A DNA stretch of 52,005 bases from Promethearchaeota archaeon (GTDB lineage: Archaea > Asgardarchaeota > Lokiarchaeia > Sigyniarchaeales > SOKP01), in NCBI GenBank assembly GCA_048939015.1, contig JBHLPW010000039.1, forward strand, positions 1 to 52,005. Reading direction: 5' to 3'. Shown here in pieces: positions 2,337-47,716 of the stretch (its first letter is position 1; each line of letters begins with the position of its first letter). Made by a program: the position numbers and the translations under genes. The notes below the pieces were generated by a model that was not told the DNA's origin, did no database searches, and was given only the letters and a program-made list of their open reading frames with translations.

Positions 2337-2638
2337 ATTATTAGTGGAAATTTGGTCTATATGAATTTATAGAGAATTCCAACTTTAAATAATAATATTA
2401 TTATCTTAAAAGGAATTTTTTAGTTTCATTGAGTTTTTCACAAGAAGTAAGAGAATCTTCAAAACTTCATACTTTTATCGAAGTGTTATATTTAAATTTA
2501 TTAAGAATTAATCTTTATAGAATTCTTGACTTAAATATAAAAGATACTAACGTTAGGAAATTAGTAAAAATTAGAATTCTGAAAGAATCTAAATTTAATT
2601 CAGATCTCAATTACATGATGAACTCGGTTATCTCTATC

Positions 2639-3355
2639 ATGAAAACTCAAATTTTCTCTAAATCCCTTGGATTAAAACATCCAAGCGTAAAAAAAGTAAA
2701 AGAGATAGCTGAAGAGATAATGAGTAAAAATAAGTTATTAAATGTGGAAAATCTCTATAATATAGCAAAAAAAAGATTAAACTTATCGAGAAATAGCCTT
2801 TTATGTATAATACAATTCTTGATTAATAAGAAGATATTAATCGAGGGATCTAAATTTTCTAAAGAAACTGCTCTTTTGAATGATAACAGAAGAATTATTT
2901 ATAATTTTATCAAATTGAATCCAGGAGTTCATTTCTCTTTATTAAGAAAAAAAGCATTATCTGGTGAATCTGGTAGTTCAGGACAATTAGTATGGCACTT
3001 AGAGATGCTCCTAAAATTTAATTATATCGATAAAACTAAAGTAGGGAATTATACTATTTTTTTTCCTATTGAAATGGAAGTTGATTTTGGAATAATGTCT
3101 TTTTTGTTGCGAGACACGATTAATTTGAAAATCATCGATTTATTAACTAAACAGAAATCACTCAAAAAATCTGAAATTTATAAATTGTTAGACGAAAAAA
3201 GGGATATTGTTAATTACCGTATAAATAATCTAATTAACTATGATTTAATCCGTTCTATAGATGATGACACTAAAGATCTCTATATAAATTCAGATAAAAA
3301 AAAGGATATTCATATTATTTTAAATAATTATAGAAATAAGTTAAATAAAATTTAA
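2639..3355 (+). CDS. multi-winged-helix putative DNA-binding regulator (paralog of 45665-46375)
   Basis: wHTH-like segments (RRIIYNFIKLNPGVHFSLLRK...SSGQLVWHLEMLLKFNYI; KIIDLL...VNYRINNL). Start moved from TTG2429 to ATG2639 because MKTQIFSKSLGLKHP aligns without gaps to the paralog's MKFKNIVGPLTLENP. Confidence 0.75.
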   Translation: MKTQIFSKSLGLKHPSVKKVKEIAEEIMSKNKLLNVENLYNIAKKRLNLSRNSLLCIIQFLINKKILIEGSKFSKETALLNDNRRIIYNFIKLNPGVHFSLLRKKALSGESGSSGQLVWHLEMLLKFNYIDKTKVGNYTIFFPIEMEVDFGIMSFLLRDTINLKIIDLLTKQKSLKKSEIYKLLDEKRDIVNYRINNLINYDLIRSIDDDTKDLYINSDKKKDIHIILNNYRNKLNKI

Positions 3356-3381
3356 TTAAAATAACTTAGCAAAAGGAGAGA

Positions 3382-4701
3382 ATGATGATATTAAATTGGA
3401 CACCAGAAATCATTGTTGAAATTTTCGCAAGTTCGATTATTTTGATAGCTACACTACTAATGTTTATTACTCCCAGAACAAAAAACATTAAATCTTTGTC
3501 TTATATCCGAGTAGCTCTCTTTTTCATGGCGATGCTCTTTATATTGGATTTATTAGCTAATCTTTTTTTGAACCTATTTATTTCCCGAATTTGTGGACTT
3601 ATGTTATTTCCTAGTGCAGTGTTTTTTGCAATTGGTATAAACTATACAATTAAAGAAACATCTAATTCACCATTCTTGCTTATCGCTGTAGGTTTAGGTA
3701 TTTTATACACTTACCTAGCATTTCAACCTGGAGCAGTTAGATTTGAAATCGAGGGGGGTTATTTAAATGTCAATTGGACTGGATTATATGAATTAGAGGG
3801 TTTGATTTTCATATTCTTTGTTGGAAGTGCTTCATTTTATTGGGGCTTGAAAACTTGGTTGAATGCTCCATTTTTAATCAAGAAAGAAGCCACTATTTTT
3901 TTCATTGGCACTCTAATAAATGGTCCCATTACTCTACTAATTTACTTGTTTTATTATTGGAATCCTATTTTTATTTTGTTTGCTTACGCTACTACTGGTT
4001 TAGGAAATTTATTAGTAGGCCTCGGTATATTGTTGGAGCCTAAACTACTTTATATTTTACCATTTACAGTTAATAGGATCGTTGTAAGAGATCGAAGAGG
4101 TAATGCATTATTTAATTATGATTGGTCTCTTTCTAGTTTAAGTGAATCTGTTTTTACTGGATTTCTAAATGCAGTACAACTTATGAGCGAAGAAGTAATA
4201 AATATGGGTGGTTTATTAGATATAAAACTAGAAGAAGGTATATTAACGCTATATGAATCTGAATTAATATCCGTTGGTCTAGTGTCATCTAAGTCTTCAA
4301 AGTTATTAAGGGAATGTGTCGTTGGTTTTTCAAATGAATTTCAAAATATTTTCGAGAAGGAACTTAAGCAGTCATGTATAAATCAAGAGAAATATGAGTC
4401 CGCATATGATTTAATAGAGAAGTACTTCTCTAACTTTCCTTATAAAATGATTACGAGCAAAAAACAACCTTTAATTTTATCAGGTGAATATACAAAAATT
4501 CCTATAGAGTTGGAAAGTAATTTTAAAGAGATTTTCAAAGACAAGATGGAATATAATTTTATTATAACTGAAATTCAAAAGTCTTCATTAAATATGAGTT
4601 CAGAGTTCTTTTCATTGTATAAAGATCTAGAAAATGAAGCACGAGAAATGATCGAAGATAATTCTAAGTCTCTGGAATATAAACTCCATGATGAATTTTA
4701 A
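3382..4701 (+). CDS. 7-TM membrane protein with C-terminal longin-like domain (paralog of 46406-47716)
   Basis: Seven hydrophobic segments in the first ~220 aa, then RIVVRDRRGNALFNYDW...VFTGFLNAVQLMSEEV...DIKLEEGILTL longin-like pattern; SD AAGGAG directly upstream. Confidence 0.75.
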   Translation: MMILNWTPEIIVEIFASSIILIATLLMFITPRTKNIKSLSYIRVALFFMAMLFILDLLANLFLNLFISRICGLMLFPSAVFFAIGINYTIKETSNSPFLLIAVGLGILYTYLAFQPGAVRFEIEGGYLNVNWTGLYELEGLIFIFFVGSASFYWGLKTWLNAPFLIKKEATIFFIGTLINGPITLLIYLFYYWNPIFILFAYATTGLGNLLVGLGILLEPKLLYILPFTVNRIVVRDRRGNALFNYDWSLSSLSESVFTGFLNAVQLMSEEVINMGGLLDIKLEEGILTLYESELISVGLVSSKSSKLLRECVVGFSNEFQNIFEKELKQSCINQEKYESAYDLIEKYFSNFPYKMITSKKQPLILSGEYTKIPIELESNFKEIFKDKMEYNFIITEIQKSSLNMSSEFFSLYKDLENEAREMIEDNSKSLEYKLHDEF

Positions 4702-5717: not shown

Positions 5718-6560
5718 TTACTTATGTTTTACTATTTTTTCTTGCGATTTTGTTTTTATCAAAGTAAATTGAGTTAACTGATTTTTCAAATCTTCAGCTA
5801 ATATCCCTAATTTCTGTGCTGTAGTTGATATCTCTTCGATTGAAGATGATTGCTCCTCAGTAGATGAATTTATTCCCTCTATAGACGAAGATGTCCTATA
5901 AATTTTATCCATAATATTTCTAATTTTTGAGCTCGTGTTTTTTACCGCACTTTTTGAATCGTCTGCTAACTTTCTAACTTCATCTGCTACAACAGCAAAT
6001 CCTCTTCCATACTCGCCTGCCCTGCCTGCTTCAATACTGGCATTAAGTGCTAATAGATTTGTCTGTTCTGAGATATTGATTATTAAATCCATTATCGCTT
6101 GAATTTCATTTGATGCTTTGACAACATCTTGAGAATCTGAAACAATATCTTGAGTTGTTGAGGATATTTCTTCTGATGCTGCACTTACTTCACTAATACT
6201 CGCTGCCATTTCCGTGGCGATATTTGCGACAGATATAGAAGTTTCAGAACTAGATCTTAGCAAGTTATTAATTGTATTCTCTTGGCGCAGAATAGTTTTT
6301 AGAATAAAATAGGTTGTATAAAAAATTAAACAACCTAAAGCAGGAACTACACATATAACTATAATCAATTCATTGTCTAAATATCCCATAGTGATTACCG
6401 CCATTAATATTAAAATTATATTACCGATGGTCGTATACAGTATTACTTTAAAAGCCATAGATTTTCTGTCTAATTTAAACCTTCTCTTGAATAATAATAA
6501 AACTAGAGTAAAAACAAATAATGCTGATAATATTTCATATTCAAATGGGAATTGAGGCAT
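5718..6560 (-). CDS. short methyl-accepting chemotaxis-like protein (3 TM plus MCP signalling tip)
   Basis: [37 protein letters not shown] signature. Confidence 0.92.
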
Positions 6561-45664: not shown

Positions 45665-46375
45665 ATGAAATTTAAAAATATTGTTGGCCCATTAACATTA
45701 GAAAATCCATATGTTCAAAAAATAATTGAAATTGCAAAAGAATTTATTGAAAAAAATAAAGTTTTGAAGGTAAAAAAACTCTATAATATAGCTATAAAGT
45801 CTTTAGACATTTCTTCGGGAGATATATTAGATATTATCCAATTTTTAAATAATAATAAAATTCTAATTGATGGGTCAAAACATACTAGAGATACAATCTT
45901 ATTTAATCTATATAGGAAAAAGATCTATGATGTGGTTCAAAGATTTAACGGTGCGACATTCTCTTTTTTAAGAGAGACAGTTTTTACAAATAATTCTGGT
46001 AGTGCAGGTCAATTAATTTGGCATTTAAAGATGTTATTAAAATTCAAATATATAAAGAAACTTAAAGTTGGAAATTATTCTTTATTCCTTCCTATTGATC
46101 TAGAAGATGATTTTGGAAGATTATGTTTCTTTATGAAGGATGACCTTAATAGAGACATTATAAGATTATTTACAGACAATGATAAGATTAAAAAGCCAAA
46201 TGTATACAAAAAAATTAACTTTAAAAGAGAAAATGTTAATTATAGGTTAAAAATTTTGATGGAGCATCAGATTTTAATCTATAAAGATGAATCCACTAAG
46301 GAGATTTGTATTTCAAAAAAGATGAAAGAATTTCTTCAAAATAATGAAAAAAAAAAAAATTTAAAAGTAAAATAA
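45665..46375 (+). CDS. multi-winged-helix putative DNA-binding regulator (paralog of 2639-3355)
   Basis: LYNIA, IIQFL...KILIDGSK, SGSAGQLIWHLKMLLKF, KVGNY, DFG, VNYR shared with first copy; start placed at ATG45665. Confidence 0.78.
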   Translation: MKFKNIVGPLTLENPYVQKIIEIAKEFIEKNKVLKVKKLYNIAIKSLDISSGDILDIIQFLNNNKILIDGSKHTRDTILFNLYRKKIYDVVQRFNGATFSFLRETVFTNNSGSAGQLIWHLKMLLKFKYIKKLKVGNYSLFLPIDLEDDFGRLCFFMKDDLNRDIIRLFTDNDKIKKPNVYKKINFKRENVNYRLKILMEHQILIYKDESTKEICISKKMKEFLQNNEKKKNLKVK

Positions 46376-46405
46376 ATTAGAAAAAATATAGATAAGGGGA
46401 TAGAT

Positions 46406-47716
46406 ATGAACATACTTATAATTTTAGAACTTGCTTTTTTAATTTCTATAACAATAGTCTTTTTAATAATTACAATAGCAATACAAGTATCTAAAATAAC
46501 GAAAAGATTTCCACTGTTGTTTTATTTAAGGTTAACATCATGGTTTTTAGTCTTATATTTTGTAACCGACATTATTTCTATCGTTTTAGAAAATGGAGCT
46601 TTTGCTCGTATTCATATTATGCTAATATTTCCATTTACATTCTTTTTTATTTTATTTTTTAATAATATGATTAAGGAATCATATTATACGATTGGTTTTA
46701 TTTTATCTTGCTGTTTAGGTTTTTTACTTATTTTTTTGGGAACCCAACCTAACGCTGTCATACAAGTGATGGAACAAGGAGTTAAAAAATATATACCTAG
46801 TGGACTCTTTAGTATTATAAATACCATGTTTTATCTATTATTCATAGTTTATTTAGTGTTTTGGGGAACTAAAACATGGTTAAGTAGTCCATTTTATTTT
46901 AAGAAAAAAACTTTAGTATGTTTTATTGGAACCATTTTGTTTGTCGGAGGTTTTATATTTCATTTTCTTTATTATATAAATCCAATTTTCAATATTTTAA
47001 TGCACTTCTTAAATTTGATAGGTATAATACTTATAACAATAGTGGTCATGAAAGAAGTAAAAGTTATTTACGTTTTGCCTTATACTGTTTATAGAATCTC
47101 AGTAAGAGATAATAATGGTAATCCCCTTTATGATCATGATTGGACAGATATGAATATAAGCGAAACTATTTTTTCGGGATTTCTAAATGCGATTGAGATA
47201 ATGAGTGAGGAAGTAATGCATGTAGGCGGAATCCTTGATATAAATCTAAATGAAGGTATTCTTTTAGTGACTAGATGCGAATATATAACAGTAGGATTAC
47301 TTGCTTCCAAAGCATCCAAATTATTAAGAGATTGTGTTAATAATTTTACAATTGATTTTCAGAATAAATTTAAGAGACTTCTAAAAAAATCTTGTATAGA
47401 TATGAAAGAATATAGATCTGCCTATGAGTTTATAAGTAAATACTTTTCAATTATTCCTTATAATAATATTAAGAATAAGAATCAGCTTATTACTCTTTCA
47501 TATGAATATCATGAAATACCAAAACAGATTGAAGATAATTTTAAGAGTATTTTTGAAAACAAAGATGAATATGAAAATGTTTTAAATGAATTAATTAAAA
47601 CTCCCTGTTCAAAACCTTCGGAATTTTTTGAACTCTATGATGAGTTAAAATTTGAAATCAATGAATTGGAAACAAAAAAGTCAAAGGAACAAGAAGAAAA
47701 GAAATATTTAGAATAA
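46406..47716 (+). CDS. 7-TM membrane protein with C-terminal longin-like domain (paralog of 3382-4701)
   Basis: Seven hydrophobic segments; WGxKTWL, GFLNA, MSEEV, EGIL, SKLLRxCV, KYFS shared with first copy. Confidence 0.78.
   Translation: MNILIILELAFLISITIVFLIITIAIQVSKITKRFPLLFYLRLTSWFLVLYFVTDIISIVLENGAFARIHIMLIFPFTFFFILFFNNMIKESYYTIGFILSCCLGFLLIFLGTQPNAVIQVMEQGVKKYIPSGLFSIINTMFYLLFIVYLVFWGTKTWLSSPFYFKKKTLVCFIGTILFVGGFIFHFLYYINPIFNILMHFLNLIGIILITIVVMKEVKVIYVLPYTVYRISVRDNNGNPLYDHDWTDMNISETIFSGFLNAIEIMSEEVMHVGGILDINLNEGILLVTRCEYITVGLLASKASKLLRDCVNNFTIDFQNKFKRLLKKSCIDMKEYRSAYEFISKYFSIIPYNNIKNKNQLITLSYEYHEIPKQIEDNFKSIFENKDEYENVLNELIKTPCSKPSEFFELYDELKFEINELETKKSKEQEEKKYLE

Follow-up and report, generated by a model that had tools for sequence, protein, structure and literature searches.

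In the pairs of a membrane anti-sigma factor and an extracytoplasmic function (ECF) sigma factor, and in membrane sequestration of the Mlc–PtsG type, a transcription regulator is bound, without phosphotransfer, by a membrane protein encoded with it, whose cytoplasmic segment covers the DNA- or polymerase-binding surface of the regulator. In the one-component regulators of the ToxR/CadC type, a membrane protein carries its own winged helix-turn-helix (wHTH) domains. In Asgard archaea, NPRL2-like longin domains are described as fused with two-component domains (Liu et al., bioRxiv 10.1101/2020.10.19.343400, text on Fig. 5c). The stretch analysed here, called the window, comprises positions 1 to 52,005 (52,005 nucleotides, nt) of contig JBHLPW010000039.1 of a Promethearchaeota archaeon (assembly GCA_048939015.1) and contains two copies of a gene pair coding for a wHTH protein and for a receptor-like membrane protein with seven transmembrane (7TM) helices, a cytoplasmic longin domain and a C-terminal helical tail. 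This pair is most likely an undescribed kinase-free route from a membrane signal to gene control. More specifically, the 7TM-longin protein would sense a signal and its tail would gate the cognate wHTH regulator without phosphotransfer, a mechanism to which a probability of about 0.5 is given. The literature search found no paper on a 7TM-longin/wHTH pair, the published material being Asgard longin/two-component fusions only; the initial annotation of this DNA had likewise not recognised the pair as a characterised system. The features of the two pairs are:

2429..3355, forward strand: wHTH regulator gene, copy 1; longest open reading frame of 308 amino acids (aa) from TTG 2429, with a conserved 238-aa core from ATG 2639
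2972..3019, forward strand: motif GSSGQLVWHLEMLLKF in the second winged helix of the copy 1 wHTH protein (residues 182-197), with invariant or nearly invariant columns; predicted docking site of the receptor tail
3382..4044, forward strand: 7TM domain of receptor copy 1 (residues 1-221), from the AlphaFold2 (AF2) model and loop charges
4045..4437, forward strand: cytoplasmic longin domain of receptor copy 1 (residues 222-352), from AF2 and structural comparison
4438..4701, forward strand: linker and C-terminal helical tail of receptor copy 1 (residues 353-439) and stop codon
45647..46375, forward strand: wHTH regulator gene, copy 2, with an ATG at 45665, from the reading frame and similarity to copy 1
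46406..47716, forward strand: 7TM-longin-tail receptor gene, copy 2, from the reading frame and similarity to copy 1

The reading frames agree with the first description of the locus, which had placed the same pair, in the same order and with the same close spacing, at 2639-4701 and 45665-47716: the membrane gene of copy 1 occupies 3382-4701 (+), and the intergenic gap is 26 nt in pair 1 and 30 nt in pair 2. The two wHTH proteins are 44% identical (E 1e-57) and the two membrane proteins are 40% identical across 407 residues (E 9e-98). All the shared motifs listed in the initial annotation (SGS[SA]GQL[VI]WHLxMLLKF...KVGNY, WGxKTWL, GFLNAxxxMSEEV and SKLLRxCV) are present in both copies. It had also been stated that the cytoplasmic half is conserved above the transmembrane (TM) half, and this is borne out by the identities between the receptor paralogs, which are 28% in the TM region, 54% in the longin domain (131 residues) and 42% in the tail (87 residues). 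From the sequences, the faster divergence of the TM part than of the longin domain is as expected for receptors that would combine varied inputs with a common output.

The evidence for a functional connection comes first from the linkage of the two genes. The 7TM-longin family is large (806 clusters at 50% identity in an exhaustive profile search), and the 7TM-longin/wHTH family is known only from Promethearchaeota-type archaea, where its members are annotated as 'hypothetical'. Many 7TM-longin proteins are about 355 aa long and end directly after the longin domain, the form of about 435 aa being this shorter form plus a linker and the helical tail. When 251 genomes of the phylum were scanned with receptor and wHTH profiles, the tail-bearing receptors and the close wHTH orthologs (defined at E 3e-49 or better) were both confined to the family of the window (f1). 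The wHTH gene is directly adjacent, and on the same strand, in 34 of the 34 full-length receptor loci that were fetched. These loci, the two window pairs and L007, L012 and L013 make up 39 pairs, in which the order is wHTH then receptor in 33, the reverse in four, and a fusion in the remaining two. A count of adjacency across Asgard genomes had been proposed as a check, and with 39 adjacent pairs the two families prove tightly linked. The tail-less relatives of about 355 aa gave no wHTH neighbour in either of two surveys (0/8 and 0/39 loci), and the tail (residues 353-439) is limited to the wHTH-paired receptor subfamily. Since the wHTH neighbour is found with the tailed form and never with the tail-less one, tail and partner gene co-occur.

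Some loci depart from the simple two-gene layout. One wHTH gene stands with two receptor genes in L007, L012 and L061, as wHTH-receptor-receptor or receptor-wHTH-receptor. Isolated fragments of 84-100 aa (L066 2367-2666; L068 2-253) are nearly identical to the tail of a copy-2-type receptor; they begin without a start codon and no wHTH gene adjoins them, so that they are probably remnants of such genes. On these grounds, a reading of the hits of about 100 aa (G195:C67 and G189:C482) as stand-alone tail genes was rejected.

A second line of evidence is a natural fusion. The protein P0246, of 676 aa, consists of a receptor (residues 4-426), some 30 linker residues and then a wHTH part that is 42% identical to the wHTH protein of the window (E 4e-60). 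The fusion is found in an ENA assembly, a Logan assembly and a GTDB genome, and all three are 100% nucleotide-identical; therefore, it is real DNA, but of a single lineage. This fused form resembles the membrane-tethered ToxR/CadC-type regulators in that wHTH domains and membrane part belong to one protein. It differs from them in the opposite order, with the membrane part N-terminal, in being polytopic rather than single-pass, and in belonging to unrelated families.

The third line of evidence is a structural model of the complex between receptor residues 222-439 and wHTH residues 71-308. The interface score (ipSAE) of this model was 0.71 (0.73, 0.69 and 0.71 in the individual runs) against 0.01 for the best control; 58 of 80 solved complexes reach the mark used for this score, as do two of 110 mismatched pairs. 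The partner had a predicted local distance difference test score (pLDDT) of 80, and the runs shared at least 55% of their contacts. In the modelled interface, tail residues 384-433 face wHTH residues 138-143, 169-196, 207-209, 226-232 and 263-267, and the stretch 169-196 includes the invariant GSSGQLVWHLEMLLKF helix. Conserved tail residues within the interface are I394, E397, P402, F409, L412, Y413 and E419, and the interface residues are the most conserved ones on both proteins. In a covariation analysis by corrected mutual information on the 39 pairs, 11 of the top 100 inter-protein column pairs had both residues in the interface, compared with 1.5 expected. The model thus supports a binding of the receptor tail to the wHTH protein, which is also in line with the natural fusion. 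An interaction between receptor and wHTH protein had been anticipated in the initial annotation, which proposed to model the longin domain with the wHTH protein; the interaction itself is backed by the fusion and the complex model, while the predicted contact is made by the helical tail and not by the longin domain.

How the receptor is related to classical signalling proteins is illustrated by a third, distant paralog in the same genome, encoded with a receiver gene at G000 contig 79:12146-14473 (L003 1474-3801). The first 350 or so residues of this 648-aa protein (L003 1474-3420) align with the window receptor at 24% identity (E 6e-25), and the 7TM-longin part is followed by HisKA (E 1.8e-19) and HATPase_c (E 1.2e-28) domains; a stand-alone receiver gene lies directly downstream. 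Further 7TM-longin kinase fusions are P0310 and P0376, and open frames of 627-650 aa occur also in other genomes of the scan. As the 7TM-longin module precedes HisKA and HATPase_c within this paralog, it is a sensor input module; and since the same input module feeds a histidine kinase, the tail and the wHTH protein would be an alternative, phosphorylation-independent output. Given the longin/two-component fusions of Liu et al., the kinase form is known in outline. The kinase paralog (G000:C79) fits that description, in which longin domains are found inside prokaryote-type signalling proteins of Asgard archaea. The window genes differ in having neither kinase nor receiver, their output being a helical tail and a separate winged-helix protein; the part of the text of Liu et al. 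around Fig. 5c mentions neither a 7TM part nor a wHTH operon.

In the window receptors themselves, Pfam found no kinase, receiver or cyclase domain, in agreement with the initial annotation, and HisKA and HATPase_c are absent from both. No Pfam family was assigned to either receptor or to 33 relatives. A resemblance of the membrane part to the 7TM sensor region of archaeal histidine kinases (HisKA_7TM) had also been suggested. The paralog in which the module precedes HisKA and HATPase_c gives substance to this idea at the level of architecture; as for the family itself, HisKA_7TM (PF16927) was not matched by either copy at E up to 1 or by the 33 relatives at E up to 0.05.

An AF2 model of the whole receptor, built with 33 homologs, shows seven TM helices with a pLDDT of about 90 and a beta-hairpin at residues 119-132, between TM4 and TM5, so that both the number of helices and the hairpin-like loop seen at first in the letters reappear in the model. 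By the positive-inside rule and loop charges, the N-terminus and the hairpin are placed outside and the C-terminus inside. Within this outer N-terminal part, residues 4-7 (window 3391-3402) form a nearly invariant L-N-W-T motif, which contains an N-x-T glycosylation sequon. In structural comparison, the bundle matches ACER3, Ste2 and both class C and adhesion G protein-coupled receptors (GPCRs) with Z scores of 12-14 over about 200 residues, the best structural match being the hydrolase ACER3 (6yxh_A, Z 14.0), and the Foldseek match has an E of 6e-3. Values of Z between 12 and 14 are common among helical bundles, and the modelled similarity to ACER3 and GPCRs would reflect a shared arrangement only. 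What the receptor has in common with GPCR-type receptors and with ACER3/PAQR proteins is a seven-helix bundle whose N-terminus lies outside and whose C-terminus lies inside; it differs from them in showing no sequence similarity and no conserved metal-binding His. Heterotrimeric G proteins are not known from archaea. A class C GPCR cluster is contained in a preprint (10.64898/2026.10.28.762692), and the present family might correspond to it.

The match to ACER3 bears on a first alternative, according to which the wHTH protein is an ordinary local regulator encoded beside a membrane transporter or enzyme under its control, the two proteins having no physical contact. Pairs of a regulator and a transporter are common, and the closest structural neighbour of the bundle is an enzyme. 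However, a hydrolase of the ACER3/PAQR (CREST) type was considered and rejected, for the invariant and 90%-conserved columns of residues 1-221 contain no His, and there is therefore no ACER3/PAQR-type metal site. The same module also feeds a histidine kinase, and the co-occurrence of tail and partner gene, the fusion and a complex model that passed its controls speak against it too. This alternative is regarded as very unlikely.

The cytoplasmic part of the receptor was below pLDDT 50 in the whole-protein model. Folded alone, with residues 222-352 aligned with 123 diverse relatives (124 sequences in total), the domain reached a pLDDT of 84.7 and a predicted template modelling score of 0.80. 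Its topology in this AF2 model is b1-b2-a1-b3-b4-b5-a2-a3, a five-stranded sheet sandwiched by helices (elements E9-16, E21-26, H34-52, E57-62, E65-71, E75-81, H86-108 and H114-128). In an exhaustive structural comparison (VIA), the top 25 rows are all solved longin domains matched over the full domain length, such as VAMP7 (4afi_B; Z 13.8, 120 residues, 3.0 A), Sec22 (3egd_C; Z 12.9), Fuzzy in CPLANE (7q3d_C; Z 12.6, 18% identity), sedlin (2j3w_A; Z 12.4) and a Lokiarchaeota longin (8yqg_B; Z 10.7). Roadblock/MglB proteins follow with partial matches at Z 9.6 or less; Foldseek agrees, with AP2 sigma at E 1.9e-4. Sequence-family matches are weak. The window protein has no match to the longin families of Pfam (PF13774, PF19036 and others); seven of the 124 sequences match PF19036 (Fuz_longin_1) weakly, with a best E of 1.7e-4, and one matches PF19031. 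A profile search of the PDB gave nothing significant (delta-COP at E 1.4). The predicted structure therefore supports a longin domain at the level of fold, as had been proposed from the sequence. It shares fold and strand order with the eukaryotic longins (VAMP7, Sec22, sedlin/TRAPPC2, Fuzzy/Mon1 LD1, AP sigma and SRX), over about 120 residues with Z 11-13.8 and a root-mean-square deviation of 2.6-3.3 A. It differs from them in its identity of 5-18%, in its position C-terminal to a 7TM bundle, and in the lack of a SNARE motif, a GTPase partner or a coat context.

The longin domain alone also terminates other large proteins (L026-L030). One of them, of 550 aa, is a polytopic membrane protein of this same genome (L026 2099-3748, G000 contig 24); another is an 867-aa RelA_SpoT-TPR-SLOG protein (L027 2518-5118), and others have 750-1100 aa and no Pfam match.

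Longin dimers act on small GTPases in Mon1-Ccz1, TRAPP and FLCN. It could be, then, that the longin domain is the real output of the receptor, which would recruit or regulate a Ras-superfamily GTPase in the role of guanine nucleotide exchange factor (GEF), a GTPase-activating protein (GAP) or an effector platform, the wHTH protein being accessory. Besides the fold, the weak PF19036 matches and the Z score with Fuzzy, this idea can draw on the 88 Ras-like genes of this genome and on the surroundings of the tail-less relatives: in 39 loci, GTPase genes have a density per 10 kb of 0.79 within 1 kb, 0.29 at 1-3 kb and 0.09-0.17 at 3-9.5 kb, with the GTPases confirmed as such. Moreover, a GTPase gene is found upstream of a fused receptor-wHTH gene: in L004, a 509-aa protein with an Arf/Ras/Roc GTPase domain is encoded at 157-1686, about 790 nt before the fusion. 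The wHTH-paired receptors, on the contrary, have a GTPase gene within 6 kb in four of 20 loci, which equals the background in the f1 genomes (one Ras-like gene per 52-67 kb), so that the coupling to small GTPases raised in the initial annotation has no neighbourhood support for the paired form. Four of the six nearest cases beside the short forms are orthologous loci of one genus, convergent rather than operonic, and the longin domain, found ahead of a histidine kinase as well, acts there like a transmitter domain. With this balance, the longin domain as the real output is considered unlikely. In the genus mentioned (L024 2370-5180; L095, L098 and L099), two tandem tail-less 7TM-longin genes face a convergent Ras-family GTPase gene at a distance of 10-47 nt.

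The GTPase link of the tail-less short forms is a lead in its own right. In a broader version, the 7TM-longin core would be an archaeal receptor acting directly on Ras-superfamily GTPases through a longin-dimer platform, and the wHTH-binding tail and the histidine kinase would be lineage-specific extra outputs. If true, a prokaryote would use receptor-to-G-protein logic, with a counterpart in the eukaryotic longin GEF/GAP membrane complexes; this version is considered very unlikely.

Regarding the wHTH partner, its second winged helix is the best recognised part. PF24266 (HTH_HVO_0163_N) matches residues 151-216 of the copy 1 protein with 31.0 bits, the cutoff being 31, and 27 of 29 relatives at E up to 0.01; the copy 2 protein alone gives 12.7 bits against the same cutoff. 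The last 70 or so residues have weak HTH_24, HTH_20 and Lrp-type matches, and a profile search of the PDB gave weak Lrp-type HTH matches only (E 0.003). A comparison by hhalign among the three presumed winged helices found no mutual similarity. Of the multiple wHTH domains first attributed to this protein, the second is thus supported by PF24266 and the third weakly, and the first is without such support. In the literature, HVO_0163 appeared only in an unrelated proteomics mention.

The copy 1 gene is also probably longer than the initial annotation had it. Its frame is open upstream of ATG 2639 as far as TTG 2429, an extension of about 70 aa, and in copy 1 and its closest orthologs the 70-125 residues before a nearly invariant Met71 are conserved as protein. 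Because of this conservation, the start is likely earlier than 2639, probably at TTG 2429, and the position 2639 is probably too late. A near-perfect AT palindrome with a TATA-like box lies at 2384-2409, ahead of this TTG. A search for operators upstream of both operons found imperfect AT-rich palindromes only, none of them convincing. The read data listed consist of four DNA runs of sediment metagenomes, all from a single study.

The tandem winged helices of ESCRT-II (endosomal sorting complex required for transport II) are protein-binding subunits. By analogy, the wHTH protein might be an adaptor subunit of a membrane complex, involved in membrane organisation, and not a transcription factor. 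According to the complex model, the receptor tail would bury the best-conserved helix of the second winged helix, the one that would normally read DNA; the fusion shows that the wHTH part can work tethered; copy 1 is close to an ESCRT cluster, and the orphan wHTH orthologs also adjoin membrane proteins. However, Pfam gave no EAP30 or ESCRT-II match for the wHTH proteins, the matches obtained being to DNA-binding HTH families (PF24266, HTH_24, HTH_20 and Lrp-type), and the surroundings of copy 2 and of most paralogs are unrelated, ABC transporter and FtsX genes being one example. A purely adaptor role is, for these reasons, also judged unlikely. As for the neighbours of the orphans, the wHTH ortholog is followed by a signal-anchored protein of more than 800 aa in L014 (3076-5499), by a 227-aa polytopic protein in L016 (2974-3654), and by two small paralogs with 3-4 TM helices in L017 (478-1577).

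The genes around the two pairs in the window are different. Copy 1 is flanked by an RsmB/NOP2-like methyltransferase gene and a NIP7-like PUA gene, with a methyl-accepting chemotaxis signalling protein and the ESCRT cluster nearby. This 280-aa membrane protein (5718-6560, minus strand) contains the signalling domain PF00015 (E 2e-30), and its gene sits between the NIP7-like gene and the ESCRT cluster. Copy 2 is flanked by ABC-transporter and FtsX-permease genes.

Returning to the gating of the wHTH regulator by the receptor tail, the following steps can be proposed. The variable TM bundle and the extracellular hairpin would take up an external or membrane input, presumably by ligand sensing, and the conserved cytoplasmic longin domain would serve as a transmitter or dimerisation module. 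The C-terminal helical tail would be the output of the wHTH-paired subfamily. The first gene of the pair would provide a tandem winged-helix protein of the HVO_0163 type; in the complex model, the tail docks on the invariant helix of its second winged helix and would cover that helix. Depending on the receptor's state, the regulator would then be either retained or occluded at the membrane, or left free to act on DNA, although the direction of control is conjectural. The fused form points to a regulator that is covered and exposed while at the membrane, without a need for its release. This scheme is similar in its logic to that of the anti-sigma/ECF sigma and Mlc–PtsG systems, which differ from the window pair in having no sequence or fold relation to it; here a 7TM-longin protein takes the place of the membrane partner and an archaeal tandem winged-helix protein that of the regulator, and the sequestration is that of a model.

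Several points weigh against this mechanism. The complex score was computed with the authors' own alignments, for which the calibration holds only roughly, and the covariation enrichment is inflated by phylogeny, with a dominant subfamily signal. An intact receptor (G104:C13:50090) and two broken copies (L008 and L010) have no wHTH neighbour, and three wHTH orthologs (L014, L016 and L017) have no 7TM-longin receptor. The fusion is known from a single lineage only, and a regulator that is permanently tethered argues against simple release. Finally, DNA binding by the wHTH protein is inferred from family resemblance only (PF24266 at its cutoff and Lrp-type matches with an E of 0.003).

Longins count among the eukaryote-like proteins of Asgard archaea, in which their partners are largely unknown. 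In the family described here, the longin follows a receptor-like 7TM bundle and leads to one of three alternative outputs, namely a kinase, a putative wHTH-binding tail, or nothing recognisable. A concrete and testable partner is thereby proposed for one large family of Asgard longins (806 clusters), and the paralogous pairs within one genome are well suited to specificity tests. The arrangement suggests that the longin serves ordinary signal transduction in these archaea rather than vesicle traffic, and, if the contact between tail and regulator is true, the pair would represent a new kinase-free route from receptor to transcription in archaea.

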